Notes under the pieces: model-generated
The model's input: the letters and a program-made list of their open reading frames with translations, nothing else
The model's database searches: none
What the model was told of the DNA's origin: nothing
Program-made: the position numbers and the translations under genes
IMG/VR virus record: IMGVR_UViG_3300008122_000001
Coordinates: 119,706 to 183,705 of that record
Length of the DNA: 64,000 nt
Reading direction: 5' to 3' (one strand)
Origin: a virus
Lineage: Duplodnaviria > Heunggongvirae > Uroviricota > Caudoviricetes
Shown: piece by piece, positions 8,975 to 61,763 of the stretch
Position numbering within the stretch: the first letter of the stretch is position 1
Layout of the letters: each line of letters begins with the position of its first letter

Positions 8975-9184
8975 ATGACATCTATTCATGTTGTTATGGT
9001 TGTTTCTCCAAGAGGAACATTATTTGATAAGTATCAAATAATAAATGAATTTGATACTATGTTAGATGATATGAAATTTAAATTTCCTATACTAACAGAT
9101 GAGAATTTATTAGATATGGTTAAAACAGGTAAGTATATTTCTGAAAGAAATTTTACTTTTTTATATCATGAATTTAAGTGTTAA
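8975..9184 (+). CDS. hypothetical protein
   Basis: ORF track. Confidence 0.45.
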   Translation: MTSIHVVMVVSPRGTLFDKYQIINEFDTMLDDMKFKFPILTDENLLDMVKTGKYISERNFTFLYHEFKC

Positions 9185-9188
9185 TTTT

Positions 9189-9647
9189 ATGTATAATGAA
9201 CATTTATTAAATAATTGGCAAATTAATCATGATCCAAATATTTTAATTGAATTTATTAAAAAGTTTCGTGATAATATTTGGCCATATTATTCTCCTTCTG
9301 GACATTGGACTCCAGAACAAGAAGAAGGTATTTCTAAATTTTGTAATCCACCTTTAAATGGTATGTATCATACTACTTATTATGATGGTAAAATTTTACA
9401 TTGTTCTGTAGGTGAAGTTGAAATTTCTTTTCAAAAAGGATCAGCTTCTATGTGTTTTTATTTTCCTAATATTGATATATTAATTTATTCTGATTATCTC
9501 TACTATGGTTCTGAAACAATTTATAATGATAGTCATTCAGATATTCGATATGATTCTCCTCTTAAAGGTTTTGAAGAATTATTGAATATTCAAGAATGTG
9601 AGGAGAGAAGATTAGTAACTGTTTCTATAACCGTAAGAGGTAAATAA
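9189..9647 (+). CDS. hypothetical protein
   Basis: ATG 9189 lies just after the upstream stop; the track's alternative start at 9168 overlaps the previous gene by 17 nt. Confidence 0.5.
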   Translation: MYNEHLLNNWQINHDPNILIEFIKKFRDNIWPYYSPSGHWTPEQEEGISKFCNPPLNGMYHTTYYDGKILHCSVGEVEISFQKGSASMCFYFPNIDILIYSDYLYYGSETIYNDSHSDIRYDSPLKGFEELLNIQECEERRLVTVSITVRGK

Positions 9648-10037
9648 ATGATTTATGGTTTACCAACTTTTAATGTATTTTCAAATTATAATTTTTCATT
9701 AGATTCTAATTTAAATTTATTATTTGTTGATCATTTAATTACTACTGATAATGTTCTTTCTATCTTACAATTAGAAGAAGATCAATATTTTATTTTAGAA
9801 CTTAATCGAGGACTTTATTTTAAAGGGTTTCAATCACAAAGAATTAAATTTATAAAATTTGAAGATCATATTTTAATGGTAATTCTAGATTGCGATCAAG
9901 ATGGTAAAAGAATAGGTCGTATTTCTTCTTTTACAATTAATGCTATTTCTTTTGAAGATCGTATTTATAAAATTAGCCATAATAAACTAATTGTATTTAA
10001 TAAAATGTTAGAAATAGCATCAAGTGGATTATTTTAA
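9648..10037 (+). CDS. hypothetical protein
   Basis: ORF track; starts directly after upstream TAA. Confidence 0.5.
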   Translation: MIYGLPTFNVFSNYNFSLDSNLNLLFVDHLITTDNVLSILQLEEDQYFILELNRGLYFKGFQSQRIKFIKFEDHILMVILDCDQDGKRIGRISSFTINAISFEDRIYKISHNKLIVFNKMLEIASSGLF

Positions 10038-11041
10038 TGTTAACATCATCTCAAATTTTAGCTTTTACTTTGTATAATCAATTATTTTCAGATGATGAAA
10101 ATGTTGCAAAGAAACAAAGACGTTCTTTATTAAATAAATGGCATCCTGATTCTAATAAGGATCAGGATGCTGAAAAAGTATTTATTCATATTAATTATTT
10201 ATATGGATTAAATAATGTTAAAGTAGTTGAAAATGTTCTTGAAATTAATGGTAAAGAATATCATTATTATTTTTCAATTGTTAATGATATCTTTACTTTA
10301 TATTATTTAACATCATTTAAACTTTTAATTAAATTTAATTTCAAGCAAGAAGAACTTAAACTAAATTTTGTAAAAAATCGAAATAAATTAGATTTATTTT
10401 TAGATTCTAAAGATTTTAAAAGTCGTTATCAAGACATTTTAAATTTAAAGATTTTAAGTTCTTCTAATGGTGAATATTTATATATTGATTTATCACCTAA
10501 TTATTTACCATTATCTTTGATTCTTCAGTATATTAAAGAATTTAAAGATTGGAAAATGAGTGCTTGGATTATTTCACGTTATTACGATTCTGCTTTGTTG
10601 TATCAACATTCGGATTTAAAATATATTGGATGTGATTTTAATTTAGTGTTTGTCGATACTAAAAAACATTTAATTATTGATTTATCTGCTTTATTCTTTT
10701 CTGTTAAAGATACAATGTTATTATTAACTAATAATCAACATAAATTCTTTACTCATTCCGCTATATCATCTAAAAAATGTGATGATGAATCTATTAATTC
10801 TTTAATTAAGTTTTCATCTATTTTATTAGCAGGTGATACTACTCAAACTGGTAATTTTAATTTAATTGAAGATATTGAAGTTAATAAAGAATTAATTCAA
10901 CAACTTCTTTTAATTAATTCTTCTCGTTCTTTATTAGATAATTATAAAGAATGGCAAGAACAAACAATTACTAAAGTTTTTTCTCAACGTTCTTTTTATA
11001 AAAAAGAACTTACTTTTAATGATCTTAAACAATATATTTAA
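10037..11041 (+). CDS. J-domain (DnaJ-like, HPD motif) protein
   Basis: N-terminal AKKQRRSLLNKWHPDSNKDQDAEKVFIHINYLYG resembles the J-domain helix II-HPD-helix III region (KYHPDKN consensus). Confidence 0.5.
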   Translation: MLTSSQILAFTLYNQLFSDDENVAKKQRRSLLNKWHPDSNKDQDAEKVFIHINYLYGLNNVKVVENVLEINGKEYHYYFSIVNDIFTLYYLTSFKLLIKFNFKQEELKLNFVKNRNKLDLFLDSKDFKSRYQDILNLKILSSSNGEYLYIDLSPNYLPLSLILQYIKEFKDWKMSAWIISRYYDSALLYQHSDLKYIGCDFNLVFVDTKKHLIIDLSALFFSVKDTMLLLTNNQHKFFTHSAISSKKCDDESINSLIKFSSILLAGDTTQTGNFNLIEDIEVNKELIQQLLLINSSRSLLDNYKEWQEQTITKVFSQRSFYKKELTFNDLKQYI

Positions 11042-11052
11042 GGATATATACT

Positions 11053-11979
11053 ATGGGTGGTTCAAGTTTTTCTACAGCAGACTGGTCTCGTGCTTCTTCT
11101 ACAGTTCGTGATCAACCTTTACATAAGACAAATGTTTCATCTTCATTAAAAGATGAATTAAATCCTGCTCTTATGAAAAATAATTGTCGTGAATCTTGTG
11201 ATTCTGTACATAATCCTAATTCTACAGCTATTATTATTGGTCTAGATATGACTGGTAGTATGAGCAGTATTATTTCTCAAATTATGGGTAAAAGTTTAGG
11301 TACTTTATTTGAATATATTTATGATCGTAAACCTGTATCAGATCCACAAGTATTATTTTGTGCTGTTGGTGATGAAATGGCAGGCGATCCTGCTCCGTTT
11401 CAAGTAGGTCAATTTGAATCTGAATGTGGTCGTTTAATGACTACTCTTAAAGATTTCTGGGTTGATGGTTGTCGTGGTGGTAATAATGATGTTGAATCTT
11501 ATGATTTACCATATTTCTTTGCATCACATATGACTAAAATTGATTGTATGAAAAAACGTAATCAAAAAGGTTTTATCTTTACAATTGGTGATGAACCACC
11601 TCCATCTACATTAAGTCCAAAAACTGTTAAACGTGTATTTGGAATTGATATTCAAAAAGAAATTTCTTTTAAAGATTTAATTCAATTAACTTCACAATCA
11701 TACATTCCTTTTCATATTATTATGTCTGAAGGTTTCCATCCTAAATTACATGGTATTAACTCTGTATTACAGCCGTGGCAAAATCTTTTAGGTGAAAATG
11801 CAATTGTATGTGATGATTCAACTAAATTATCTGAAGTTATTACTAGTATTTTAGAAATTAAAGCTGGTAAAAATAAAACTGAAGTAATTAATAGTTGGGA
11901 TTCTACTACTACTCTTGTAGTACAAAAAGCTGTAGGCAACTTACCAGCTCAACAATCTGGTGGTCTTGTTTTTAATTAA
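11053..11979 (+). CDS. von Willebrand factor A (vWA) domain protein
   Basis: MIDAS motif IIIGLDMTGSMSS (DxSGS) followed by the beta-alpha pattern typical of a vWA fold. Confidence 0.6.
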   Translation: MGGSSFSTADWSRASSTVRDQPLHKTNVSSSLKDELNPALMKNNCRESCDSVHNPNSTAIIIGLDMTGSMSSIISQIMGKSLGTLFEYIYDRKPVSDPQVLFCAVGDEMAGDPAPFQVGQFESECGRLMTTLKDFWVDGCRGGNNDVESYDLPYFFASHMTKIDCMKKRNQKGFIFTIGDEPPPSTLSPKTVKRVFGIDIQKEISFKDLIQLTSQSYIPFHIIMSEGFHPKLHGINSVLQPWQNLLGENAIVCDDSTKLSEVITSILEIKAGKNKTEVINSWDSTTTLVVQKAVGNLPAQQSGGLVFN

Positions 11980-12000
11980 TTAATGTTTTAAGGTTCTACA

Positions 12001-13221
12001 ATGGAAAATGCAGTAGTTATTGGTTCTAATTATGGTGATGAATCTAAAGGTCGTACTACAGATTATTTAGTTAAACAAATGTTGAATCAGAAATTAAACC
12101 CTATTGTTGTACGTTTTAGTGGTTCTAATAATGCTTCACATACTGTATATCTAAATGAAACTACTTATCATGCTTTTAGTAGTATTGGTAGTGGAAGTTT
12201 CCGTAATGTTCCAACTTATCTTTCTGAGTTTTTTGCTGTAGAACCTCAAGCATTGATTAATGAATTAAATAGTTTTAAGTCTAAGTTTAATTATACTTCT
12301 ACTATCTTTATTGATCCAAATTGTTTATTGGTTACTCCTTATGATGTTGCTCTTAATCGTTTAAAAGAAACATTAAAGGGTAATCATAAACATGGTTCAA
12401 CTGGTTCTGGTTTAAATGAATGTAAACAACGTAGCAAAACGCATCCATTCTATATTAAGGATTTGTTAACTGGACAAAATACTGAATTATTTAATAATAT
12501 TTATGCTTATTTTATTAAGCAGTTACAATATTTAATTGATCAATATAAATTAGATATCGAAACATTAGATTCTGATTTAAAAGATTTACTTTATATTACA
12601 CTTAATATGAAGTTTATTGATGCATTCTATTCTCATTATTCTAGTTTACTAGATAACCCTCATATTACCTTAGAAACTCCTGATTTAAAAGAATACTCTT
12701 GTGTATTTGAAGGTTCTCAAGGTTTAGCATTAGAGGAAGATTATCATAATTTTCCTTATGTTACTCACTCAAAAACTGGTATTCGAAATGTTCTAGAAAT
12801 TTGTGTAAAACATGGTATTGAACTTACTGATGTTTATTACCTCTCTCGCACTTATCTCTCTCGTCACGGTTTCGATCCAAACTTTAATACTTGTCATCAC
12901 AAAAATGTGTTAGAAGATTTTAATATCTTTGATGTAACTAATGTATATAATCCTTGGCAAGGTTCTATGGTATTTAATTATCTAAATATTAATGAATTAG
13001 AATCTCGAATTAATACTGATTTTAAACATTGTTTAGAAGTCTTTCCTAATTGTTTAGAACATCGTGTATTCTCTTGTGTAGATCAAATTAAAGGTAAATA
13101 TAAAGTAGTTATTGATAATACACTACACGTATTTCCTTCATTCAATGATTTTTTAAATTTGTATATGGAACAGTTTAAAATTTCTTTTGTTACTTCTTTC
13201 ACTTCCCCTATTAATAGTTAG
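12001..13221 (+). CDS. adenylosuccinate synthetase family protein (PurA/PurZ-like)
   Basis: P-loop VVIGSNYGDESKGRTTDYL (PurA GDEGKGK), SNNASHTVY (PurA NAGHT catalytic His) and GSTGSGLNE (PurA GTTGRGIGP) all present in the right order. Confidence 0.75.
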   Translation: MENAVVIGSNYGDESKGRTTDYLVKQMLNQKLNPIVVRFSGSNNASHTVYLNETTYHAFSSIGSGSFRNVPTYLSEFFAVEPQALINELNSFKSKFNYTSTIFIDPNCLLVTPYDVALNRLKETLKGNHKHGSTGSGLNECKQRSKTHPFYIKDLLTGQNTELFNNIYAYFIKQLQYLIDQYKLDIETLDSDLKDLLYITLNMKFIDAFYSHYSSLLDNPHITLETPDLKEYSCVFEGSQGLALEEDYHNFPYVTHSKTGIRNVLEICVKHGIELTDVYYLSRTYLSRHGFDPNFNTCHHKNVLEDFNIFDVTNVYNPWQGSMVFNYLNINELESRINTDFKHCLEVFPNCLEHRVFSCVDQIKGKYKVVIDNTLHVFPSFNDFLNLYMEQFKISFVTSFTSPINS

Positions 13222-13230
13222 GAGCTTCTT

Positions 13231-13512
13231 ATGTCTGATTTAAAAATGAAAGTTTTTCTTGTAAATGAAATTGAATCTGAAGCTGGTTGGGGTTCTCGTG
13301 ACTCTGCTCAATATGTTTTTCCTAGTGAAGAGTTAGCTTTAGAATTTTGTAAAAAATATCATGCTGAAAATAACAATTTAAGTTATGTTCCAGATACTTA
13401 TTATCGTCAAGAATATAAAGGTACAGTAAAGATTACTGAATCTCAGTTCAATAAACATAAGTATAAAGGTGATTTAATTGTTATGCCTGAATGGAATTTT
13501 ACTGGAACTTAA
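13231..13512 (+). CDS. hypothetical protein
   Basis: ORF track; in frame with and 9 nt downstream of the TAG stop of the PurA-like gene. Confidence 0.5.
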   Translation: MSDLKMKVFLVNEIESEAGWGSRDSAQYVFPSEELALEFCKKYHAENNNLSYVPDTYYRQEYKGTVKITESQFNKHKYKGDLIVMPEWNFTGT

Positions 13513-13513
13513 T

Positions 13514-13957
13514 ATGATTATTGAAACAATCAAAAAAGATATTTTTCAATCTGTATTAAATTCTGAATTTGATTTATTTGCACATGGTTGTAACTGTTTT
13601 CATTCTTTTGGAAAAGGTATTGCATTAACTGTAAAAGATACTTTTCCAAAAGCATATGTTGCAGATAAAGCTACAGCATATGGTTCTAAAGATAAATTAG
13701 GAACTTATTCTTTTGCTGAATATGATTGTGTAAAAGTTATCAATGCTTATACTCAATTTAATTATGGTTATGGAAAAAGAAATGCAGATTATAATGCTAT
13801 TAAAAAAGTATTTGAAACATTAAACTTAGAGTATCCTGGTTTAACTTTAGCTATTCCTAAAATTGGTGCTGGTTTAGCTAAAGGTGATTGGAATATTATT
13901 CAAGATATTATCAATGAATCAACTCCTGATTTAAAAGTATCTTTATTTTATTTATAG
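13514..13957 (+). CDS. macro domain protein (ADP-ribose binding / hydrolase)
   Basis: DLFAHGCNCFHSFGKGIALTV and IPKIGAGLAKGDW match the macro-domain core motifs; ATG 13514 directly follows the upstream stop. Confidence 0.7.
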   Translation: MIIETIKKDIFQSVLNSEFDLFAHGCNCFHSFGKGIALTVKDTFPKAYVADKATAYGSKDKLGTYSFAEYDCVKVINAYTQFNYGYGKRNADYNAIKKVFETLNLEYPGLTLAIPKIGAGLAKGDWNIIQDIINESTPDLKVSLFYL

Positions 13958-13966
13958 GTAACTATA

Positions 13967-14287
13967 ATGATATCTAATGAAGAATGGTGTTGGGATTCAG
14001 AAGAACCTCAACAACTTAGTTCTTATCCTTTAGCACATAAATCAAATGAAGTAGCACTACTTGTTCAACGAAATGGTGTTATTTTTATTCGTCTCCATTC
14101 TAAGTGTTTAAGATACGCTTATGAATGGGGGATTAATACAAGAGATGCTCGTACTACTTGGCAACTTGAATGTCAAAAATCTCGTTTAATTAATGAAGGG
14201 TTTAAAATTAATTGGGATAATTACCAATTAATTCTTCAAATGTTTAATCAACGTTTTAAACTGTATGCTCCCTATTTAGGTAAATAA
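13967..14287 (+). CDS. hypothetical protein
   Basis: ORF track. Confidence 0.5.
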   Translation: MISNEEWCWDSEEPQQLSSYPLAHKSNEVALLVQRNGVIFIRLHSKCLRYAYEWGINTRDARTTWQLECQKSRLINEGFKINWDNYQLILQMFNQRFKLYAPYLGK

Positions 14288-14288
14288 T

Positions 14289-14486
14289 ATGAATATTGTA
14301 TATCTTGTTTTATTTGTAATTGGTTCTAGTGGAATAACTTCACAATCTATTCCTCAAGCAAATATGGCTCAATGTCAAATTAATGCTAAACAATTTAATA
14401 CTGGAAATAATAGAAATATTGTTTCTAATAGTTATACTAGTGATGCAAAAACACAAGCAGCTTTGTGTATAGTAGGAATTAAATAA
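14289..14486 (+). CDS. small secreted/membrane protein
   Basis: ORF track; hydrophobic N-terminus MNIVYLVLFVIGSSG. Confidence 0.45.
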   Translation: MNIVYLVLFVIGSSGITSQSIPQANMAQCQINAKQFNTGNNRNIVSNSYTSDAKTQAALCIVGIK

Positions 14487-14488
14487 AT

Positions 14489-14686
14489 ATGGAACAATTA
14501 TTAACGCATTCTTGTCCTGTTATTAAATCTAGAACTAAAGTTGAAATCCTTCGTGTATTCAATTTTCCTGCTACTGATAAACAATTTGTAACTATTAAAG
14601 ATTTAGAAAATTTTACTCTAAATCATAAGGGACATAAAGAAGATATTATTAGTACTATTGAATTAACTCTTGATACTTTTGTGTAG
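14489..14686 (+). CDS. hypothetical protein
   Basis: ORF track. Confidence 0.45.
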   Translation: MEQLLTHSCPVIKSRTKVEILRVFNFPATDKQFVTIKDLENFTLNHKGHKEDIISTIELTLDTFV

Positions 14687-14694
14687 ATCATTAA

Positions 14695-15135
14695 ATGAAA
14701 CGTTATTCGATATTGTCTATGTATAAATGGACTGGAGAAGAATTTTCTATTTTTAATTCAGATGATTTTTCAAGTATTATGTCTAAATATAATTTTATAT
14801 TGAAACATATAAAATACATGAAAGTTTTATCTCCATCTAAATCTAATCATCGTATTAGTAATTTACAAGTATTCAAAAAAATATATAAAGAATTACATAC
14901 AAATTCTTCTTTATACCCTTGTGATTTATTAGATCCTAATATTATTGTTTTACGTGATAATAAAACTAATTTAATAATTAGTAATTTTAGGTTTCATAAA
15001 TTAATGGGAGGATTAATTCCTAATGAAATTACTCCAGAATATTTAACAGAACAGAAAGAAGTAAATCAAATTCTTTCTTCTATTTGGCAAGATTATACTA
15101 AATGTTATTCATTTAAATATTTTAGAATATATTAA
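14695..15135 (+). CDS. hypothetical protein
   Basis: ORF track. Confidence 0.5.
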   Translation: MKRYSILSMYKWTGEEFSIFNSDDFSSIMSKYNFILKHIKYMKVLSPSKSNHRISNLQVFKKIYKELHTNSSLYPCDLLDPNIIVLRDNKTNLIISNFRFHKLMGGLIPNEITPEYLTEQKEVNQILSSIWQDYTKCYSFKYFRIY

Positions 15136-16404: not shown

Positions 16405-16896
16405 ATGTACATCAAAAATACAGTTATTAATGATAATTTTGTTGTTTTTTGGAACAGCATTTTTAGTAACTTTCTTCCATGTGATTTTGTATTTAAAGGT
16501 TTAAAATTTAAATACTCAGAACATGGACTCATGTGGTGTAAAGCTATTCACTTTGGTGACACCAAAATAGCAGAAGAAATTCTTGTAGCTCCAACTCCTA
16601 AAAAAGCTAAAGAATTAGGTCGTTTAGTTAAAAATTTTGATGAAAAAGAATGGAATGAAGTTCGTTTACAATACATGGTTGATGTACTTGTTTGTAAATT
16701 TGGACAAAATCCTTCATTAAAGAAAACTCTTTTAAGTACTGGTTCTCGTAAATTTGTAGAAGGATCTCCTTTCGATATCCATTGGGGTATTGGTATCCAT
16801 TGGCAAAATTCAGATTGTTTAGATGAATCTAAATGGAAAGGTCAAAATTTACTTGGTAAAGCTTTAGACCAAACAAAAGAAATTTTAAAAGGATAA
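16405..16896 (+). CDS. NADAR (YbiA-like, DUF1768) domain protein, predicted ADP-ribose N-glycosidase
   Basis: FVVFWNSIFSNFLPCDFVFKGLKFKYSEHGLMWCKAIHFGD matches the NADAR N-terminal signature (F-x-G-x-x-SNF; Y-x-S-x-EH); length ~160 aa fits. Confidence 0.65.
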   Translation: MYIKNTVINDNFVVFWNSIFSNFLPCDFVFKGLKFKYSEHGLMWCKAIHFGDTKIAEEILVAPTPKKAKELGRLVKNFDEKEWNEVRLQYMVDVLVCKFGQNPSLKKTLLSTGSRKFVEGSPFDIHWGIGIHWQNSDCLDESKWKGQNLLGKALDQTKEILKG

Positions 16897-20868: not shown

Positions 20869-21348
20869 ATGGAAATTAATGAAAAAGACTTAAAAGTGTC
20901 TCAAACTTTTAATAAAGTTAGTGAACATTTAGAACAAATTAAAGTAAATACAGAAGAAAAATTAAAAGTATCTTTATCTGATACTCAAGAAGTTAATTTA
21001 TTATTACATAAATATTCTCAAGAATTAAAAACTAAATTTAAATATAATAAATATTTATGTAGTACAGATGATATTAAAAAGTTTTTATTAGAAAACTTTC
21101 CAAATGCTAAAATTGGATTTTTTAAATTATTAAAATTAGGTTTTATTGATTTTGGAAAGTTTTTTCTTATTCTTTATTTTATTTTAGCTCCTATATATTT
21201 ATTAATTATTCTTAATTTTACAGTATATTCTCTTCAAACTAGTATATTTGGTTCTATTTTATTATCTTTATTTACTAGTACTATGATTACTCTTCCATTA
21301 TATCCTTCCGAAATTAAAGCAACAAGAGGTCAATTTAAAATTGAGTAA
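20869..21348 (+). CDS. membrane protein, member of the 'E-x-DLKLS' two-TM paralogue family
   Basis: MEINEKDLKVSQTF N-terminus and two C-terminal TM helices, like 29278, 29719, 30177 and 42091. Confidence 0.5.
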   Translation: MEINEKDLKVSQTFNKVSEHLEQIKVNTEEKLKVSLSDTQEVNLLLHKYSQELKTKFKYNKYLCSTDDIKKFLLENFPNAKIGFFKLLKLGFIDFGKFFLILYFILAPIYLLIILNFTVYSLQTSIFGSILLSLFTSTMITLPLYPSEIKATRGQFKIE

Positions 21349-21850
21349 TAATTATTTTTGTGCAGATCTTCATTTAGATCAACCTTCTATTATTAAATTT
21401 AGAAATCAATTTACTGATCATAAAGAACATGATCTTTTTTTAAAAGAAAATTATCATAAAGTTGTTCGTCCTAAAGATTATGTAAATATGGTTGGTGATA
21501 TTTGTATGTCACCAGCTGCCATTGAAGAATTACGTACTTGGAATGGTATTAAAAGTATTTATTTAGGTAATCACGATAATGCTGAATTTAAAAAACGTGG
21601 TGTATCTTTAGAGATGTTACAATCAGTATTTGAAGATCGTATTTATGGATTTACTCGTAAACATGGTTTTTGGGTGTCTCATTGTCCTATTCATCCTGTA
21701 GAACTTCGTAATCGTAATTGTGTTCATGGACATGTTCATTCAAACAATATAGATGATCTTCGCTATTTTAATGTATCAATGGAAAATATTGATTATACTC
21801 CGATTTCTTTAGAAGAAATTAGATCTATATTTAAGTCTAGAGGTTTATAA
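21341..21850 (+). CDS. calcineurin-like metallophosphoesterase (Ser/Thr phosphatase / ApaH-like)
   Basis: CADLHLD, GDICMSP, GNHDN and VHGHVHS fit metallophosphoesterase motifs I-V. Confidence 0.6.
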   Translation: MSNNYFCADLHLDQPSIIKFRNQFTDHKEHDLFLKENYHKVVRPKDYVNMVGDICMSPAAIEELRTWNGIKSIYLGNHDNAEFKKRGVSLEMLQSVFEDRIYGFTRKHGFWVSHCPIHPVELRNRNCVHGHVHSNNIDDLRYFNVSMENIDYTPISLEEIRSIFKSRGL

Positions 21851-23837: not shown

Positions 23838-26800
23838 ATGAATACTCAAATTGGGTTAAAAGGTAATTTTAAATCTGTTCCTTATATTCCAGAAAATCTA
23901 TCACCTAAAGATATAGGTCAACTATTTCCGCCAGGTTTTGATGATATTATTGAATATTCTGTAGATGAATTTACTAAATCTATTAATATCACAATTTTAA
24001 CAGACACTAACAAAGAAAATACAATTATTACTCTTAGTGAAAATCTGTATAACCCGTCAAAGAACAAATGTTTCTTTCCTAAATTCCTCATTGAACAACA
24101 TCACAATTTTCCTAAAATTAATTACTTAACTGATCAACGTGATCGTTTTGTTTTTAATCAAAATGAATTGTTTTATATCTGTTTACAACACCGTTTAGTA
24201 GACTTTAAACGTTTTAAAGATGCTTATGGTAACTTAGTAAATAATGATATTAAATCTATTATGAATTTTATTGGTTATATTCCTAATACTGCATACAATG
24301 CTATTCAACGTGATAAGCATTCGTATATTTTATTAGATATTTATGACGATAAAACTAAAGCTTTAAAAGTTGTATCTAAAAAACAATGTTTAGGTAATAT
24401 CTTAAAACATCGTAAATATCACCCTACTAAAGAGAAGTTAAAAGCTTTATTGCCTACACTTCCTTTACATTTTTCTTCAGAATCTATGGGTGAAAAATCT
24501 AAGTATGTTTTACATGATTATAACTCTCCTTTATACCGTTCTGTAGGTTATAAAATGGAGTTAGATTCAAAAAATAATCCTTATGTTTTAAGTCTATTTC
24601 CACCTAAACAAAATATTCCTGCTCGTAATAAAACGCATGTAACTTCAGATGCATGTGCTTTAGCAAATTTTGTACCAACTTCGAAATTTATTCAAGATTA
24701 TCTTCCAAATTTGGAAGAACAACGTTTTGATCCTAAAGATCATTGTTATAAAAAATCTTTATGTGTTATTCATCCGATGTTGGAAAATGGTAAATTTTTA
24801 TATGGTGAAATTTATGCTTCTGAATCTTTTGTATCTACTGAAGTAATTGTTCGTGAAACAATTAAAGATCAATTTGAAGAGATTTTCATTGAAGAAAACA
24901 AAACATATTATTCAGATAGTAACAATCAAATTAAAGTTGGTTTAAATATTGAAAACCAACCATTATATTTGGAAAATTGTATTTCTGCTAAATTAACAAG
25001 TGTTCAAATCTTGGGTACTTTAGGTGTACAGAAATTAGTTTTTGATGTTGTACGTCATGCTGGTAATGCTCGTATTGATTCTAATACTGGTTTAAAAGGT
25101 GTAACAACTTGTCGTAATAATCTTGGTACTATCCATATTCCTGAACTTAATAAAGAATTAAAACCAGATCTAGTATTTGGTATGAACTCTTTTAAAGCTA
25201 AAGGAAATGGTATTATATTAGCTCGTGCTGCTCTTGCAGTAGAATTAGGTTTATATCGTCCATCAAATGTATTTGGTTATTTAAATACATGGGATACAGA
25301 TGAAATCAATCGTGCTTCTAATTCATTACCAGAATATTATTATATTGATGATTTAGGTAACAAACAAACAGTACAAATTGGTATTGTATATGCTCGTTTT
25401 ACTGAATTATGTTATATCTATAAGTCATATAAACCTAACAAGCCATTTAGTTTTGAATCAGGTCGTGTATTACAAAGCTTAACAGACAATCGTTTGTTTA
25501 CTAATATTTGGGAAAATTATGTTTCTGAAGATTATAAATCAATTGTAATTGAATTAGAAAAGATTCTTTTAGATAAAAAGAATATTTTTGAAGATGAAAT
25601 TCCAATTTATACAGTTGAAGGGATTCGAAATAAAAAGATTTTTAGTCATAAAGATCTGATTTTAAATATCCGAACATCAACTGAATCTTTATCTTGTTTA
25701 CTTGATGAAGATTGGAATAAAGGATTTATTATTAATTTTGTCCCTAATGGTGGAAAATGTGTACGTATTCCTTGTGCAAAAACTCTTAAATTATTCTGTA
25801 CTCAAACAGATGATAAAATGTACATGTACCCATCTTTATTAATTGAAATTTCTAAAATGATTAATTCCATTTTAAATAATTCAATTCAATTGTTGTTTCC
25901 TCGTACAGAAACAAATTATGCAAAAAATAATACACCAGTAATTCGTTATTATCGTGAAGTTAAAGGTTTATTGTTTTCTTCTGAAGAAGCTTCTGTAATG
26001 TTAATTCAAAAGCTTTCTCGTCCAGAAATTCCTGGATTTGCATTTAAACAAGTAACTGATTATATTTTACCAGATAACACTTGTGTACTTATGTGTAATA
26101 AGACATATAATAAAGCTATTGAAAATGCTTTAGGTGAAGATGCTGATTTACATGCTTTAACTTATAACTTCTATGGTTTACATGTTCGTGCTCCTTCTCT
26201 TTGGCGTAAACAGAACATTCCAGTTAAGATTTGGAATCAAGATGATTTTCGTATTTATCTTTGGTCTAAATTTGGTATTAAGTTAGAAAACTATATTAAT
26301 ACTAAATGGAATAATGACGTTGTAATCTTTAGTAATAATGTATGTCGTAACAGTCAATCGGATATTGATGGCGATCATAGTACTGTATTTACACCAGAAG
26401 GATTAGAAGTTCAAGAATGTCTTCGTACTTATAAAGACGATCATGTTGTAGAAGCTGAACATGAATGGATTCAAGATTACATTAAAGGCGAAATGGAGTC
26501 TAATGAAGATTTAATTAATGAAGATGGTACTTTAGTTAATCATGTTTATACTTTATATACAGTATATTTACATGATGTTAAAGTAAATCGTAAAGAAGTT
26601 AAAACTGGTTTCTCAACTTTCTTATATCGTGCTATTACAGCTAAAGCTAACATTGGTTTAAGTACTAATGATGGCTGGATCTTTAATATGATTCTTGATT
26701 TATACCAAAAGTATTATCAAGCTAATGATGGTAAATACCAAGTTACTGAAACATCTGAAGAAAAAGCAATGTATCGCTTATCTGAAGATCAACGTGATGA

Positions 26801-27257
26801 AATTTCATTTGTTTATACTAAAGCTCTACAAGATTTTGTAGTACGTGGCGTTAAACATACTGATAATGGTAGTGAAGATTTTGAAGTATTATTCTTGAAG
26901 AATATTTGGAAAGCTGATAATGCTAAAAATGTCTTTAAGTTATTAACTAACGATCTACGATTACCTAATATGTTGGCATCTAAAATGATGTTTATTATTA
27001 CTTGGGCACAAGACATGGGCTTCTTATTAGGTTGTTCAGCATTCCTTAAGTTGTATAACAAAGGAACTATTCCTACAGGTGATGCTGCTGTAGCTTTAGA
27101 ACAACATGAATCGTTTATTCAATCTAATACTTACTTTGGTACATTACTTGAACCTGTTTACAAATTACGTCAACAGGCTAAAGATTATACTCAAGTTAAG
27201 AAAGTAGAACGAAAACAAGTGACTTATGTAGATCCTTTAGCTGCAATGGGTTTTTAA
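23838..27257 (+). CDS. large protein, candidate single-chain two-barrel (DPBB) RNA polymerase
   Basis: 1139 aa; FGMNSFKAKGNGIIL (cf. beta-subunit RHGNKGV) at ~aa 445 and NVCRNSQSDIDGDHSTVF (cf. beta-prime NADFDGD) at ~aa 860, in the beta-then-beta-prime order of YonO/crAss-like/RdRP-type enzymes. Confidence 0.45.
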   Translation: MNTQIGLKGNFKSVPYIPENLSPKDIGQLFPPGFDDIIEYSVDEFTKSINITILTDTNKENTIITLSENLYNPSKNKCFFPKFLIEQHHNFPKINYLTDQRDRFVFNQNELFYICLQHRLVDFKRFKDAYGNLVNNDIKSIMNFIGYIPNTAYNAIQRDKHSYILLDIYDDKTKALKVVSKKQCLGNILKHRKYHPTKEKLKALLPTLPLHFSSESMGEKSKYVLHDYNSPLYRSVGYKMELDSKNNPYVLSLFPPKQNIPARNKTHVTSDACALANFVPTSKFIQDYLPNLEEQRFDPKDHCYKKSLCVIHPMLENGKFLYGEIYASESFVSTEVIVRETIKDQFEEIFIEENKTYYSDSNNQIKVGLNIENQPLYLENCISAKLTSVQILGTLGVQKLVFDVVRHAGNARIDSNTGLKGVTTCRNNLGTIHIPELNKELKPDLVFGMNSFKAKGNGIILARAALAVELGLYRPSNVFGYLNTWDTDEINRASNSLPEYYYIDDLGNKQTVQIGIVYARFTELCYIYKSYKPNKPFSFESGRVLQSLTDNRLFTNIWENYVSEDYKSIVIELEKILLDKKNIFEDEIPIYTVEGIRNKKIFSHKDLILNIRTSTESLSCLLDEDWNKGFIINFVPNGGKCVRIPCAKTLKLFCTQTDDKMYMYPSLLIEISKMINSILNNSIQLLFPRTETNYAKNNTPVIRYYREVKGLLFSSEEASVMLIQKLSRPEIPGFAFKQVTDYILPDNTCVLMCNKTYNKAIENALGEDADLHALTYNFYGLHVRAPSLWRKQNIPVKIWNQDDFRIYLWSKFGIKLENYINTKWNNDVVIFSNNVCRNSQSDIDGDHSTVFTPEGLEVQECLRTYKDDHVVEAEHEWIQDYIKGEMESNEDLINEDGTLVNHVYTLYTVYLHDVKVNRKEVKTGFSTFLYRAITAKANIGLSTNDGWIFNMILDLYQKYYQANDGKYQVTETSEEKAMYRLSEDQRDEISFVYTKALQDFVVRGVKHTDNGSEDFEVLFLKNIWKADNAKNVFKLLTNDLRLPNMLASKMMFIITWAQDMGFLLGCSAFLKLYNKGTIPTGDAAVALEQHESFIQSNTYFGTLLEPVYKLRQQAKDYTQVKKVERKQVTYVDPLAAMGF

Positions 27258-28712: not shown

Positions 28713-29294
28713 TTGAGCCAAAGACTAGTTCGGATTTTAAATATGTTTTTTATTTCACATGGATCTACTAAAACAGTAGACAATACAGATTACCAATTTG
28801 ATGCCAAATCTTTTCAATGGCAAATTGTACCAAAAGATCCAATGAAGTTTGAACAATTTGCTAAAGATCTTGTATCTTTGGATTCTGAATGGTTTGATAA
28901 TAATTGTCATCCTGAAGGTTTTCTAAAATGTCCTCGTTGTTATAGAAAACATAATGTAGTAGATAATTTTGATCTACTATGTGATGGTTGTACAATTCTA
29001 TTAAAAGACTATCACTCTTATGGCTTGTCATTTGAGTTTACAGAGCGATTTAACCAGTGGTATACAAATGTACCTACTGATGTAGTAAACGCTCGTCTAG
29101 CGCTTCGTATGGAGCTATACAAAGTATATACATCTAAATTTGTGTTCCATGAAGAAAGACCATTAACTATCTTAAGAGATCCTTTAAAAAATAATGGTGA
29201 TCTAGAAGTCTGTTACTCTGATTTAGATATTACCGATAAAAAAAATCGTTTTATTTTAAATATTAAAGAGATGTCTTATGGAAGTAAAGGATGA
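28713..29294 (+). CDS. hypothetical protein with zinc-ribbon-like CPRC...CDGC motif
   Basis: ORF track; CPRCYRKHNVVDNFDLLCDGC. Confidence 0.5.
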   Translation: MSQRLVRILNMFFISHGSTKTVDNTDYQFDAKSFQWQIVPKDPMKFEQFAKDLVSLDSEWFDNNCHPEGFLKCPRCYRKHNVVDNFDLLCDGCTILLKDYHSYGLSFEFTERFNQWYTNVPTDVVNARLALRMELYKVYTSKFVFHEERPLTILRDPLKNNGDLEVCYSDLDITDKKNRFILNIKEMSYGSKG

Positions 29295-29697
29295 AGATCT
29301 TCAATTAAGTCCTCAATTTAAGAAAGCTATATTAGAAGCTCAAAAACAAGGTACTCAAAATAAGAATAATTTAAAAACGCAACTTAGTAAAAAAGTTGAG
29401 TTAAAATTATTCTTTAAACAAACTAAGCTTATTAAAGATTTGTATATACATAATCCTAAACAAAAGTATACTATTTTACATTCATTTCTTGTTGATAATT
29501 TTAAATTAACTGATAGTCAAGCTGATATTGAATTATTAAAAAGATTTTATTTTGATATGGATTTGTTTAAACCCATTCTTAGTATTTTATCACTTCTAAT
29601 TATTTGTATAGTATTTGCAATAGTTGGACCTAATGCTATGTCTATTTTTGCTCTTATACTTACAGTGATATTCTTTATAGCGTTTGTATTAGACTGA
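29278..29697 (+). CDS. membrane protein, 'E-x-DLKLS' two-TM paralogue family
   Basis: MEVKDEDLQLSPQF N-terminus; C-terminal two TM helices. Confidence 0.5.
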   Translation: MEVKDEDLQLSPQFKKAILEAQKQGTQNKNNLKTQLSKKVELKLFFKQTKLIKDLYIHNPKQKYTILHSFLVDNFKLTDSQADIELLKRFYFDMDLFKPILSILSLLIICIVFAIVGPNAMSIFALILTVIFFIAFVLD

Positions 29698-29718
29698 TTA
29701 TTATAATGGAATAAAAGT

Positions 29719-30171
29719 ATGCACGTAGATGAAACAGACTTAGAGCTAAGTAGTAAATATCATTCTTTAATGAAAAAAGCTACAACTATAAATCAATGTA
29801 ATATTGATCTATATAAGAAAAAACTTTCAGATAAAGTAGAGATTAATCTTTTTTTAAATCAAAAAGATTTACTTAAGAAAATAACTTTATATAAAGAAGA
29901 TAAAGCAATAGTTTTATATGATCTTATAAAAGATGAATATAATTTTAGGGGTTATAAATTAAAATTAATGTTACTTAAAAAAGGGTATTTAGTTTATAGT
30001 ATTAGACATTTTATACCTAGCTTCTTAACATTTATTAGTGCTTTAATTGGTTTTATTATCTGTTTTAAATTGTTGTTATCTTTTATTTATCTTATGATAT
30101 TAGCTATAGTTATTGCTTTATCTTTTTTAAGGTCAATATATTATTTTAATTCTTTTCTTTATAATGAGTAA
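29719..30171 (+). CDS. membrane protein, 'E-x-DLKLS' two-TM paralogue family
   Basis: MHVDETDLELSSKY N-terminus; C-terminal TM helices. Confidence 0.5.
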   Translation: MHVDETDLELSSKYHSLMKKATTINQCNIDLYKKKLSDKVEINLFLNQKDLLKKITLYKEDKAIVLYDLIKDEYNFRGYKLKLMLLKKGYLVYSIRHFIPSFLTFISALIGFIICFKLLLSFIYLMILAIVIALSFLRSIYYFNSFLYNE

Positions 30172-30176
30172 TTACT

Positions 30177-30629
30177 GTGAATGTTAATGAAAAAGATTTA
30201 AAACTTTCTGATAATTATTTAAAAGCTGTAAAAGAAAGTCGAATTATTTTTGATAAAAAAGAATCAAAAGTTAAACAAATACTTTCTGAATATCAAGAAG
30301 TAAAATTATTTTTATCTGATTATAATAATATTCGTAATTTAATTAAATATGAATCATATTTTAGTTCTTACTCAATATTATTAAATTTTATTGAAGATAA
30401 TTTTAATATTAATAATATCCGTAGTAGTGTACGCTTTTTACTATTACGTAAAGGATACATTTATCCTTTTTATTTTTTACCTCTTATATTCGCAATACTT
30501 TTAGGTGTATCACTTTATTTTATGAGTGGAATACCTTGGTTAGGATTTTGGGCAACTATTTTCGCTCTTCTTCTTCTTATTTCTAGTTTTATTTCAGTAG
30601 TTGGATTATTCAGTCCAACTAAAAATTAA
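30177..30629 (+). CDS. membrane protein, 'E-x-DLKLS' two-TM paralogue family
   Basis: GTG start gives (M)NVNEKDLKLSDNY, consistent with the paralogues; C-terminal TM helices. Confidence 0.5.
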   Translation: MNVNEKDLKLSDNYLKAVKESRIIFDKKESKVKQILSEYQEVKLFLSDYNNIRNLIKYESYFSSYSILLNFIEDNFNINNIRSSVRFLLLRKGYIYPFYFLPLIFAILLGVSLYFMSGIPWLGFWATIFALLLLISSFISVVGLFSPTKN

Positions 30630-37891: not shown

Positions 37892-37905
37892 TTTTAAGGA
37901 GACTT

Positions 37906-38097
37906 ATGTATACTTTTTTTCAGGTTAAAAATTTACAAATCAATGATTTTAATTATTTTTGCTATTCTTTAGGTTATACTTATAAAGTAAAAACTAAAAA
38001 AGAAAAAGAAATTTTAGATAAATGTATTAATGCTATGCATAATGCACGATTACTTTATAATATTAATTATAGAAAATATTTTGAAGCAAATCCATGA
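37906..38097 (+). CDS. hypothetical protein
   Basis: ORF track. Confidence 0.45.
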   Translation: MYTFFQVKNLQINDFNYFCYSLGYTYKVKTKKEKEILDKCINAMHNARLLYNINYRKYFEANP

Positions 38098-38375
38098 AAA
38101 TTTTAGGCGATAAAAGTTACGTTGTGTATAACAAACAAGATTGGCAAAAATTATTACTTATATTATGGCCTCATCTTAATTATAAATTTACTGATCGTTT
38201 ACTTACTCTTGCAAATGTTAAAAATGCAGTATATATACGTATAGTATTAAATAGTATTGATGGGTTAGATTTTGATGGTTGGGGTCAATTGGCAGATTAT
38301 GATTCCTATAATCCTTCTACAATTACTAAAATTGATTGTAAAGATGGATTACCAGATTGGATTACTAACTTATGA
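38094..38375 (+). CDS. small protein, 'NxEDW-LLLIL' paralogue family
   Basis: VVYNKQDWQKLLLILWPHL core; ATGA overlap. Confidence 0.5.
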   Translation: MKILGDKSYVVYNKQDWQKLLLILWPHLNYKFTDRLLTLANVKNAVYIRIVLNSIDGLDFDGWGQLADYDSYNPSTITKIDCKDGLPDWITNL

Positions 38376-38680
38376 TAGATAATACTATTCTTAATAATTT
38401 TCATAATAAAGCTTTTATTATATATACAAATGAAGACTGGTGTAGTTTTTTATTAAAAATAAATCCTTATTTATACAGACCTTTCCATTCAGATTTATTA
38501 GAAAGTTTTAATCAATTTTCAAAACCTTTGTATCTTAGAATGTATGTAGATCCAGATGATAATACCTTACGAATTGATGGATGGGATTTATCATCTAATT
38601 TTAAACGTTTTAATGACCCTACAAAAATAACTCAAGTTGATTGTAGAGAAGGGTTTCCTGATTGGCTTTTGAAATTATGA
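38372..38680 (+). CDS. small protein, 'NxEDW-LLLIL' paralogue family
   Basis: IIYTNEDWCSFLLKINPYL core; shares C-terminal DCxxGxPDW with 38094. Confidence 0.5.
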   Translation: MIDNTILNNFHNKAFIIYTNEDWCSFLLKINPYLYRPFHSDLLESFNQFSKPLYLRMYVDPDDNTLRIDGWDLSSNFKRFNDPTKITQVDCREGFPDWLLKL

Positions 38681-38982
38681 AAAATATTACAGAAATAAAA
38701 ATATTATTAGCTAATAAATCTTTTGTAATAACAAATGAATCAGATTTTTTAAAATTTGTATTAAAGATTTCTCCTTACTTACCTATTGATTCTCAAAACT
38801 CTCTAAGTTCTCTTTTAAAAATAGCTAAAGGTAGTTTACCTATTTATTTGCGTTTTAAATCTGGTCTTAGTCCTCTTGTGTACTATGATGGCTGGTCTGA
38901 AATGGAAAATTATAATAAATATAATAATCCTAAACATTTTGAAAGAATAGATAATCTAACCCCTTATTTGGAAATGTTATGA
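38677..38982 (+). CDS. small protein, 'NxEDW-LLLIL' paralogue family
   Basis: ATG 38677 in ATGA overlap; FVITNESDFLKFVLKISPYL. Confidence 0.5.
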   Translation: MKNITEIKILLANKSFVITNESDFLKFVLKISPYLPIDSQNSLSSLLKIAKGSLPIYLRFKSGLSPLVYYDGWSEMENYNKYNNPKHFERIDNLTPYLEML

Positions 38983-39392
38983 AAACACTTATATTATTAG
39001 ATGATGAAAGAACTTTAAAAGATATTACTTGGGTTAATTATCCCCAATATAAAGAAGTAATTCACTTTAAATTTTTTGAAGAATTTACTAATTTTTGTGA
39101 TAATGTTTTCGGTGGTTTTCTTGGAACTCCTTTAAATTTTAATAATTTAGATTTTTCTTTTGACCATGATATTCAAAGTTTTGATAAGTATGGTAATGAA
39201 TGGACAGGGTATAGTTGTTTAAAATATTTATTGGATACTACTTATTTAATAGATCTTGAATCTTTAATATATACTAAAGAAAAAAATAATATTAATAATT
39301 CTACTTTTTTCTTTCATACAAAAAATCCTGTAGGAAAAGAAAATATGGAAAAATATTATCAAAATTTTATCAAGTTTATTAATGAAAACTAA
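38979..39392 (+). CDS. hypothetical protein
   Basis: ORF track; ATGA overlap. Confidence 0.5.
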   Translation: MKTLILLDDERTLKDITWVNYPQYKEVIHFKFFEEFTNFCDNVFGGFLGTPLNFNNLDFSFDHDIQSFDKYGNEWTGYSCLKYLLDTTYLIDLESLIYTKEKNNINNSTFFFHTKNPVGKENMEKYYQNFIKFINEN

Positions 39393-39654
39393 ACAAGACT
39401 TATTAGGAAAATTTTTAATTTGTTATAATGAAGAAGATTGGTATAAGACTGTTTTAATTTTAAGTGTTTATACTAAAACTCCTCTTTGTGATTTTTTTCC
39501 AACTTTAAACTGGGATTCTTTAAATAAATACCAATATGTTTATATTAAACTAGATGGTACATTAGGTTATGGAGATTCTAGACATATTGATTTAAAATTT
39601 GTAACTGAAAATCTTACAGAAATATGTTTAAAAGATTTTTTTGTAGAATATTAA
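39382..39654 (+). CDS. small protein, 'NxEDW-LLLIL' paralogue family
   Basis: FLICYNEEDWYKTVLILSVY. Confidence 0.5.
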   Translation: MKTKQDLLGKFLICYNEEDWYKTVLILSVYTKTPLCDFFPTLNWDSLNKYQYVYIKLDGTLGYGDSRHIDLKFVTENLTEICLKDFFVEY

Positions 39655-39655
39655 T

Positions 39656-59256: not shown

Positions 59257-59354
59257 TGCAGAATAAAAGATCTAGAAGGAATAGGCTAGGTTAATGATAA
59301 TTGCAATCCCTGTTTGGCTCGAACCCAATATTCTGCCCATATAAAGGTAATAAA

Positions 59355-59732
59355 ATGTGTGTTAAAAAATATGCTGTTTGTGCATTAGTATTAAACAGTG
59401 AAGGTCTTATTCTTGGTGTCAGTCGTAAAGATGACCATACTGCTTTTGGTGTTCCTGGTGGTAAAGTAGAAGATAATGAAACAGTAGAAGAAGCACTTCA
59501 TCGAGAAATGCTAGAAGAAACTGGTTATCATATTATTATAGGGGATGAACTCCCTTTTATTTCTGATGTAGATGGTTATACAACTGCTACATTTAAAGTA
59601 AAAATAGATACAGATGCTATTCAATATCAAGTTACTGAAACTGGTGTTGTTAAATATGTATCAAAACAAACCTTATTAGATGGTCCTTTTGGTCAGTATA
59701 ATAAACAACTTTTTGAATTCTTTAATATTTAA
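59355..59732 (+). CDS. Nudix hydrolase
   Basis: GVPGGKVEDNETVEEALHREMLEETG is a complete Nudix box (GX5EX7REUXEEXGU); ATG 59355 with aaaggtaataaa RBS preferred over 59301. Confidence 0.65.
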   Translation: MCVKKYAVCALVLNSEGLILGVSRKDDHTAFGVPGGKVEDNETVEEALHREMLEETGYHIIIGDELPFISDVDGYTTATFKVKIDTDAIQYQVTETGVVKYVSKQTLLDGPFGQYNKQLFEFFNI

Positions 59733-61400: not shown

Positions 61401-61763
61401 ATGACTATCTATTCTGAAACTCATCCTACAGAACTCTCAAAAGAATTTTGTGATTCTATGTTTAAAGAACATGGATTATTTAAACCTATTCTTGATCCTG
61501 CTACTTCTTTTATGAAAGATACTGAGTATGTGTTTGTAAGAGTTAAAACTTGTGATATTTGTAATAAATTTGATGTAACTAAACTTTGTATGCCAACAAG
61601 AAATCAAGAAATCTTTTTAAAGATTTATCATATTTGTTATAACTGTCATTGGGACTTAACTAATTATGCTATTAATCCTAGTACAATAGATTATTGTCGT
61701 TTTATTAAAGAAGCTTCTATAAATATCTTAAAGAAAAAAAGTACAGTATTTAACTATGAATAA
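61401..61763 (+). CDS. hypothetical Cys-rich protein
   Basis: CDICNKFD ... CYNCHWD. Confidence 0.5.
   Translation: MTIYSETHPTELSKEFCDSMFKEHGLFKPILDPATSFMKDTEYVFVRVKTCDICNKFDVTKLCMPTRNQEIFLKIYHICYNCHWDLTNYAINPSTIDYCRFIKEASINILKKKSTVFNYE

Follow-up and report, generated by a model that had tools for sequence, protein, structure and literature searches.

The locus described here lies in a 64,000-nucleotide stretch of viral DNA (the window in what follows), which covers positions 119,706 to 183,705 of the IMG/VR record IMGVR_UViG_3300008122_000001 (Caudoviricetes). Its subject is the gene at 12001-13221, which encodes a 406-amino-acid (aa) homologue of the adenylosuccinate synthetase PurA. It is nearly certain that this PurA-like gene belongs to the PurA superfamily, that it forms a separate clade there, that it is not the phage enzyme PurZ, and that it is functionally tied to a protein with a vWA domain and a metal-ion-dependent adhesion site (MIDAS). 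The gene is the last of a trio that occupies 10037-13221 of the window:

10037..11041, + strand: J-domain ('KWHPD') fused to a kinase-like domain without the catalytic Asp, 334 aa; first gene of the trio
11053..11979, + strand: vWA/integrin-beta-I-like protein with an intact MIDAS, 308 aa; phrog_2971, no Pfam family
12001..13221, + strand: PurA-superfamily enzyme of a distinct clade, ATG to TAG, 406 aa

The PurA-like protein and its fold

The open reading frame (ORF) at 12001-13221 carries all three PurA motifs, G12-D13-E14-S15-K16-G17, N44-A45-S46-H47-T48 and G132-S133-T134-G135-S136-G137, as an earlier note on this DNA had described them, and the coordinates given there are exact. The same note had placed the gene in the PurA/PurZ family, which is borne out both by the Pfam match and by a Foldseek search with a structure model. 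The match to PF00709 (Adenylsucc_synt; E = 7.3e-38, 130.8 bits against a cutoff of 27) covers only model positions 1-271 of 416, and the AlphaFold2 (AF2) model of the protein (pLDDT 94.3, pTM 0.93) has the PurA fold across the whole chain. By sequence, the nearest solved structures are bacterial PurA enzymes (E = 1.5e-21). By structure, bacterial and eukaryotic PurA take the top ranks (E = 8e-22 to 1e-16; TMq 0.69-0.72 over alignments of about 460 columns), followed by archaeal PurA (6.5e-15), the PurZ0 structure 7VF6 (3e-13) and the PurZ structures 7ODX (9e-13) and 6FM1 (4e-11); PurZ and PurZ0 thus rank below every PurA. Family members are 393-409 aa long. The window itself has a G+C content of about 25% and nearly all its genes on the + strand, 87% of it is coding (+ strand) under the standard code, and a megablast search with positions 11000-15000 against 50,697 phage records found no near-identical known phage.

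A branch apart from canonical PurA

We mapped 124 family sequences to E. coli PurA numbering and compared them with the canonical enzyme (EC 6.3.4.4; E. coli structures 1ADE and 1CG0). The likeness comprises the fold (Foldseek E = 8e-22, TM about 0.7), the GDExKG P-loop with Asp13 and Lys16, the Asn38/His41 motif, Gln224, Thr239, Arg272 and the [ST]xxD motif with Asp333. D13, K16, G17, H41, E221, Q224, L228 and R272 are kept in all 124 sequences, T239 in 122 and the guanine-specifying Asp333 in 118, and the position of Asn38 is occupied by Gln in 76 and by Asn in 47, the window protein being one of the latter. Residues D13, K16, N44, H47, Q240 and D361 of the window protein are the equivalents of E. 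coli D13, K16, N38, H41, Q224 and D333, and the catalytic set of canonical PurA (Asp13, Lys16, Asn38, His41, Gln224) is complete in it. Retention of the Asp333 equivalent suggests that guanosine triphosphate (GTP) may be a substrate here as well.

Other positions set the family apart from PurA, to which the window protein is only about 21% identical. Val273 is replaced by His in 124 of 124 sequences, giving 'RHG' for 'RVG' (His289 in the window protein), Lys331 by Cys in 101, and Arg131 is lost; the GTP-base motif (S/T)KxD accordingly reads S-C-V-D361 in the window protein. The aspartate loop of PurA, G298-A-T-T-G-R-R-R-R306, is swapped for a shorter T-N-x-x-N-x-W-Q-G-x-x-(R/K), in which the Gln is invariant and the Thr-Asn near-invariant. 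In the window protein, by an alignment of distant sequences, the loop reads D-V-T-N-V-Y-N-P-W-Q-G-S-M-V-F (T313-N314..N317..Q320-G321); it contains no Arg or Lys, and other members have at most one, a basic residue that most of them retain and that is Val in the window protein. The aspartate-binding residues T300, T301, R303 and R305 are absent from every one of the 124 sequences, whereas bacterial PurA keeps them, and PurZ and PurZ0 do so in the form TT..RR.

Model scores and phylogeny agree with this picture. The NCBIfam PurA equivalogs NF002223 and TIGR00184 score the window protein at 110.7 bits against a cutoff of 402 and at 105 against 395.55, and the PurZ model NF038379 at 43.7 against 300; being far under both sets of cutoffs, the protein is neither a PurZ nor a canonical PurA. 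A neighbour-joining tree (42 sequences, 364 columns, 100 bootstraps) unites the family in one clade with 100/100 support, apart from canonical PurA and from PurZ/PurZ0. The earlier note had set against its own PurZ proposal the case of a host-like PurA with intact residues for inosine monophosphate (IMP). The IMP and phosphotransfer residues are indeed intact, but the protein sits in its own clade and has an altered aspartate loop, so that host-like does not describe it.

A divergent 537-aa 'adenylosuccinate synthetase' was also noticed on a plasmid of Rhizobium sp. Kim5 (locus L180, 3443-5056), where it adjoins a RelA/SpoT-domain gene. In the neighbour-joining tree it joins neither the vWA-paired family nor canonical PurA nor PurZ, and it may represent a further PurA-like lineage.

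The vWA and J-domain partners

The genomic context was surveyed in 166 related loci (85 viral, 81 bacterial), among them 80 from IMG/VR and 80 from GTDB genomes that were collected with the family profile; the family has at least this many, since more exist. All ORFs within 7 kb were clustered to count neighbours. In 157-158 of the 166 loci the PurA-like gene has a vWA gene on its strand, in 122 of them directly upstream, and in the loci without one the PurA-like gene is mostly close to a contig end. The association holds in the reciprocal direction, a PF00709 gene being found just downstream of four out of four vWA-type proteins on long contigs. Among the loci examined the PurA-like gene is never part of a purine operon, which, like the pairing with a vWA/MIDAS gene, distinguishes it from purA. 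A profile search of 1.84 billion representatives (50% identity) recovered 874 vWA partners at E <= 1e-30.

The vWA partner is itself strongly conserved. Its MIDAS residues D65, T67, S69, T161 and D180 (the DxSxS...T...D site) are present in about 277 of 278 sequences, and 272 of the 278 begin with Met1-Gly2, even where the longest ORF begins further upstream; this start is shared by very distant partners from a mycobacteriophage and from bacteria of the candidate phyla radiation. The flexible C-terminal tail, G-phi-phi-(R/K)-(F/L), is conserved as well. In the Mycobacterium phage FoxtrotP1 (L007, 5930-7714) the vWA partner is split by an intein-like insert, with weak Hint/intein-splicing matches and a length of 594 against about 305 aa, which points to a protein that matters to the phage. 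Domain fusions, considered as clues to function, were limited to a single case with a U-box, besides a few extensions that remain unexplained. The fusion occurs in a metagenome-assembled genome of the Gammaproteobacteria (L117, 3354-4964), whose vWA partner has two C-terminal U-box domains (Pfam 5e-24); the U-box is a eukaryote-type E3-ligase and Hsp70-associated module, intriguing beside the J-domain gene of other loci.

The J-domain pseudokinase gene is less constant, being present in 80 of the 166 loci. HPD is found in 67 of 77 members, and the Asp of the HRD motif is changed to Ala, Gly or Ser in most. The product of 10037-11041 matches Pfam DnaJ (1.2e-4) over residues 24-56, and is 44% identical to its equivalent in locus L002 and 23% (E = 3e-13) to that of Clostridium beijerinckii; the mycobacteriophage equivalent matches Pkinase (6e-9) in addition to DnaJ, and also phrog_3043, 'kinase'. 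A phage-like contig of 299 kb and the C. beijerinckii chromosome carry the whole trio as well. Elsewhere the slot of the J-pseudokinase is taken by a Met/Gly-rich protein of 200-240 aa (many viral loci) or by a 111-aa protein (Flavobacterium). A scan of 9000-15000 for promoters and terminators gave no signal above that of shuffled sequences, with no terminator-like site in 9020-15000, and PADLOC returned no match for any of the three trio proteins.

A neighbourhood of NAD and ADP-ribose genes

After the members of the trio, the most frequent neighbours in the 166 loci are genes of nicotinamide adenine dinucleotide (NAD) and ADP-ribose metabolism: NrtR in 46, NAMPT in 18, a Prs-like protein in 10, NADAR and macro proteins in 9 each, and ADP-ribosylglycohydrolase (ARH) in 7, with at least one such gene in 57 loci. 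The NrtR proteins are confirmed by Pfam as a Nudix domain plus the NrtR winged helix. In Flavobacterium, same-strand clusters run from NrtR through Prs, a small protein, vWA, the PurA-like gene, NADAR, macro-ARH and further genes to NDT-NAMPT, and NADAR directly adjoins the PurA-like gene in the operons examined. In C. beijerinckii the order is NrtR, Prs, PncA, NAMPT and then the trio. Many large phages, and bacteria from many phyla, carry the module, which often lies within NrtR-controlled clusters for NAD salvage and ADP-ribose processing.

Four genes of this kind lie in the window:

13514..13957, + strand: macro-domain protein (DarG-like / ADP-ribose-phosphate phosphatase-like), starting about 300 bases downstream of the PurA-like gene; phrog_335 2.9e-52, PADLOC DarG 9.8e-9, Pfam Macro 0.031
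16405..16896, + strand: NADAR-domain protein, 3.2 kb downstream; Pfam NADAR 1.3e-42
59301-59732: Nudix protein, 8.3e-13
61756-62601: ADP-ribosylglycohydrolase, from a Pfam scan

The presence of four ADP-ribose-handling genes in 64 kb suggests a heavy investment of the phage in reversing ADP-ribosylation or in ADP-ribose turnover. The earlier note had listed three other nucleotide-handling enzymes around the PurA-like gene. Two of them are real, namely the Nudix gene and a dUTPase-like gene (45178-45543, PF00692, 6.7e-16), the latter ordinary-looking; for the third, a metallophosphoesterase at 21341-21850, the motifs DxH, GNHD and GHxH can be seen by eye, but there is no Pfam match at E <= 0.001 in a concatenated query. 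The nearby enzymes are mostly concerned with ADP-ribose and NAD (macro, NADAR, ARH, Nudix), and do not form a purine-replacement theme.

Such neighbours recall the phage pathways of NAD+ reconstitution (NARP), of which NARP1 (the Prs-like Adps plus Namat, to which the macro phosphatase Adpp may be added), NARP1-AP, NARP2 (NAMPT and NMNAT) and NARP3 have been described. Prs-like, NAMPT-like, macro and NrtR neighbours in phages and bacteria are common ground, but no described NARP has a PurA-like, vWA or J-domain part, and neither Adps nor Namat is present in the window. We found no published description of a PurA-like/vWA/J-pseudokinase module in a literature search of incomplete coverage that included work on NARP3, aRES and jumbo phages and NAD-ADPr surveys.

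Proposed function and alternatives

The fold, the separate clade, the residue pattern, the gene pairing and the neighbourhood are direct observations. Beyond them, we lean towards the reading that this distinct PurA branch, encoded by the last gene of a J-pseudokinase/vWA/PurA-like module, may be a GTP-dependent ligase which uses an amine other than free aspartate and serves in a conflict over NAD and ADP-ribose. Taken by itself, an NAD+/ADP-ribose-linked role of the module, in physiology or in the conflict of phage and host, seems probable. The chemistry is more tentative, and we would call it plausible but somewhat short of probable: a hypoxanthine nucleotide, either IMP or one close to it, would be phosphorylated at O6 by GTP, and an amine would then displace the phosphate in a manner other than the attack by free aspartate in PurA. 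GTP use and O6 phosphorylation are probable because D13, K16, H41, Q224 and Asp333 are invariant or nearly so; the disappearance of T300, T301, R303 and R305, together with the new invariant set (His273, Gln/Gly, Thr-Asn), would mean that the amine, or its mode of binding, differs from that of PurA. The reaction, or the use made of it, would require the vWA partner, and the role would lie in NAD+/ADP-ribose phage-host conflict rather than in the replacement of a DNA base. The module is a conserved, unstudied operon that phages share with bacteria of many phyla and that is found repeatedly in NrtR/NAMPT/macro/NADAR clusters, and it offers a testable candidate for a new enzymatic step in that conflict.

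Several points weigh against this reading. Substrate, nucleophile and the part played by the vWA protein are all inferred. The alignment of the aspartate loop spans distant sequences, and it is possible that the aspartate site has been rebuilt and that the enzyme is hence a true adenylosuccinate synthetase. Two thirds of the loci have no NAD or ADP-ribose gene within 10 kb, the enrichment of such genes was judged only against their low general frequency, and the ORF clusters behind the counts come from simple six-frame ORFs and single-linkage BLAST. In the window there is no NrtR, NAMPT or Prs gene, nor any Pfam match to Pribosyl_synth, NAPRTase or NMNAT.

The alternative that survives best, unlikely in our judgement but deserving of attention, is that of a genuine adenylosuccinate synthetase acting on IMP, aspartate and GTP. 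The gene would then be an auxiliary metabolic gene for adenylate supply, either for a genome of 75% A+T or for the rebuilding of NAD+, with the vWA and J-domain proteins as assembly or regulatory partners. Retention of the phosphotransfer, O6-activating and guanine-specifying residues and of the PurA fold would be expected of such an enzyme, the family groups with canonical PurA and not with PurZ in the neighbour-joining tree, the window is A+T-rich, and a study of metagenomes found that phage PF00709 genes from unmodified contigs cluster with the E. coli PurA (bioRxiv 10.1101/2025.10.22.683976). This is countered by the complete loss of T300, T301, R303 and R305 across the family, by an equivalog score of 110.7 against 402 bits, and by the obligate pairing with a MIDAS protein, for which purine biosynthesis offers no counterpart. 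We also count against it that the Clostridium, Flavobacterium and Massilia carriers presumably own a housekeeping purA too.

A further idea, unlikely and a shade more speculative, is that the PurA-like and vWA proteins make up a nucleotide-protein or nucleotide-metabolite ligation system, in which GTP-activated IMP would be joined to an amine other than free aspartate, possibly the N-terminal Gly of the partner; phages and bacteria would employ it in their NAD+/ADP-ribose arms race, for instance for counter-defence or as a signal. Its narrowest version, which we hold to be improbable, has the alpha-amine of the N-terminal Gly of the vWA partner, freed by removal of Met, as the nucleophile; the glycine would become linked to the purine nucleotide through N6, leaving an 'N6-adenylyl' mark of +330 Da. 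The Met1-Gly2 start, common to even very distant partners, and the inseparability of the two genes would fit, as would the loss of the arginines that bind the aspartate carboxylates, which is to be expected if the donor amine has no free carboxylates; going by the titles of PDB entries 1cg3, 5k7x and 6zxq, hadacidin, a glycine derivative, sits in the aspartate site of PurA. But the scheme is purely conjectural and a stoichiometric self-modification would be unusual, the vWA protein does not begin with an extended free tail in its AF2 model (the first residues have a pLDDT of about 79, and a helix starts at residue 8), and Gly2 may have been kept for Met excision, stability or MIDAS contacts.

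Pairs of an NTPase and a vWA protein offer another comparison. MoxR-vWA, CobS-CobT, BchI-BchD and NorQ-NorD likewise have a P-loop protein that uses NTP encoded beside a MIDAS vWA protein. The TerY-P triad is reportedly made up of a vWA protein, a kinase and a phosphatase, as described by Anantharaman, Iyer and Aravind in 2012. Such systems share with the trio that a kinase-like protein is sometimes present and that they occur in conflict and stress loci; they differ in that the NTPase of the trio is no AAA+ protein but a ligase of PurA type, whose active site for nucleotide O6 is complete, and the trio, unlike TerY-P, has a kinase without the catalytic Asp, an added J-domain and no phosphatase. 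By analogy with the MoxR-vWA pairs, the PurA-like protein could be a SIMIBI-type GTPase switch or chaperone with no ligase chemistry, the vWA protein being its co-chaperone and the J-domain protein an adaptor for the host DnaK. NTPase and vWA/MIDAS pairs are a recurring chaperone design (PMC7824862), the J-domain has its HPD, one vWA partner is fused to a U-box, and there are weaker fold matches to the SIMIBI NTPase Get3. Yet the catalytic base Asp13, the acid His41 and Gln224, which belong to nucleotide O6 chemistry and not to mere GTP hydrolysis, are kept in all 124 sequences, and we consider such a switch quite improbable.

PurZ and the Z-genome

The earlier note had proposed the gene as a possible marker of a Z-genome, in which PurZ commits dGMP to the synthesis of 2-aminoadenine (Z) and Z stands for A, and had held that sequence alone cannot tell PurA from PurZ. 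The second statement is wrong, since the P-loop residue Asp or Ser separates them: in a 767-sequence study (PMC12884076) 99% of canonical PurA had Asp13 and each of the 147 phage PurZ/PurZ0 had Ser, and the S14D (Ser to Asp) change abolishes the selectivity of PurZ (bioRxiv 10.1101/2025.10.22.683976). Asp13 (GDESKG) is present in the window protein and in 124 of 124 aligned family members, and the PurZ of S-2L and phiVC8 and the PurZ0 of HunterDalle and Sapo all have Ser there in our alignment. The first statement fares no better, and a PurZ or PurZ0 identity is now very improbable.

The likeness to PurZ and PurZ0 (solved structures 6FM1, 7ODX and 7VF6, succino-amino-deoxyadenylate synthase) consists in being phage-borne, in belonging to the same PF00709 superfamily and, for PurZ0, in an Asp at the NTP-base position. 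It might be added in favour of PurZ that PHROG 1211 bears a PurZ-type name, and that DutZ, a Dut-like enzyme, occurs in PurZ0 phages (PMC12884076) and a dUTPase-like gene lies 32 kb off in the window. Against this, PurZ has Ser where the 2-amino group fits and is only about 17% identical to the window protein, is shorter (340-390 aa), keeps the TT..RR aspartate loop and is accompanied by DatZ/MazZ/DpoZ or DutZ/DmtZ, none of which is present in the window. A phmmer search with DatZ and MazZ of S-2L found no homologue in the 64-kb window or the 166 related loci, and no window ORF of at least 85 aa has an HD, MazG or DNA_pol_A Pfam match. With the window protein as query, tblastn finds phages of Mycobacterium (Bixzunavirus) and Rhizobium and some of Vibrio; with S-2L PurZ it finds phages of Arthrobacter, Vibrio (phiVC8-like), Microbacterium, Acinetobacter and Gordonia, and the two sets are mostly distinct. 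The PurZ/Z-genome identity was therefore rejected on Asp13, the separate clade, the model scores and the lack of Z-cluster genes in the window.

In RefSeq, the Bixzunavirus PurA-like genes (for instance in NC_041901.1, NC_054717.1 and NC_021346.1) are labelled '2-aminooxy adenylosuccinate synthetase', which is also the name of PHROG 1211. FoxtrotP1, the sole Bixzunavirus protein aligned, keeps Asp13 and falls in the vWA-paired clade, and to judge from its sequence the PurZ-type label is probably an over-annotation. Phage 'adenylosuccinate synthetase' genes are now often read as markers of Z-genomes, and some bear a PurZ-type name in RefSeq and PHROGs. A large share of them belongs to a third branch, told apart by Asp13, RHG, the TNxxNxWQG loop and the vWA neighbour, and these should not be counted as Z-genome markers.

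The TAG stop and the tRNA with a CUA anticodon

Two further claims of the earlier note concern the end of the gene: that the next ORF, which starts with the ATG at 13231, lies in the same frame as the TAG stop (13219-13221), and that a CUA-anticodon tRNA lies at 56696. Both are correct, and the tRNA is genuine by ARAGORN and Rfam. The features in question are:

13219..13230, + strand: TAG stop overlapped by an AGGAG Shine-Dalgarno sequence, 6-nt spacer, then ATG (read from the sequence)
13231..13512, + strand: 93-aa ORF between the PurA-like and macro genes, with weak PHROG matches only
56696-56767: tRNA with a CUA (amber-suppressor) anticodon; ARAGORN, Rfam 56.8 bits
57297-57374: weaker tRNA-Arg(TCG); Rfam 30.2 bits

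The implied read-through of the TAG, which would produce a 503-aa fusion with the next ORF, has in its favour the shared frame and the real tRNA, but we give it hardly any credence, as the AGGAG, 6-nt spacer and ATG make an independent start, homologues stop with TAA at the same aligned residue before a spacer or hairpin and unrelated genes, the family is 393-409 aa long, read-through adds little coding and the frame would be shared by chance in one case out of three. In detail, a 98% relative (L183) has the same TAG/AGGAG/ATG arrangement and also the 93-aa ORF, which is not kept beside more distant homologues. A 55%-identical homologue, whose protein sequence ends in '...RSAIN', has a TAA at the same aligned position, and behind it come a 48-nt spacer rich in stops and then an unrelated gene; a 43%-identical one has TAA at that position with a hairpin next. 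Of the 128 + strand ORFs that reach 60 aa, 11 terminate in TAG. Among nine TAG-ended ORFs, five share their frame with the ORF that follows, a proportion without significance. Read-through or recoding of TAG was thus rejected for the PurA-like gene on the homologous TAA stops, the next gene's own Shine-Dalgarno sequence and ATG, and the fit of the standard code. Nothing in the window needs the tRNA(CUA), and TAG recoding, if there is any, would concern genes outside it.

Other features of the window

A 2.2-kb stretch at 52263-54434 is free of ORFs of 60 aa or more on both strands, whichever single stop codon is reassigned, and has a G+C content of 0.27-0.33 against about 0.25 elsewhere; it may encode a large non-coding RNA or be the remains of a gene. 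A gene at 48099-49433 has a TROVE (Ro60-like) match of 1.7e-4, under the Pfam cutoff, and a C-terminal vWA-type DxSGS motif, and in Vibrio phage phiKT1024 a TROVE gene (L006, 11391-12899) lies a few kb from the PurA-like gene. Rfam scans of the ORF-free stretch (E <= 1) and of the surroundings of the TROVE gene found no Y-RNA or other non-coding RNA beyond the two tRNAs.

The 1139-aa protein encoded at 23838-27257 has no Pfam match, and its 'SDIDGDH' recalls the catalytic DxDGD of the beta-prime subunit of multisubunit RNA polymerases; together with a Cpn10 gene (2044-2325) it suggests a jumbo-phage-like genome. Five small paralogues, encoded at 20869-21348, 29278-30629 and 42091-42558, share the start 'M..(V/I)(N/D/K)E.DL.(L/V)S' and two C-terminal transmembrane helices, and the region 37900-46300 holds a long run of paralogous ORFs of about 85-100 aa.

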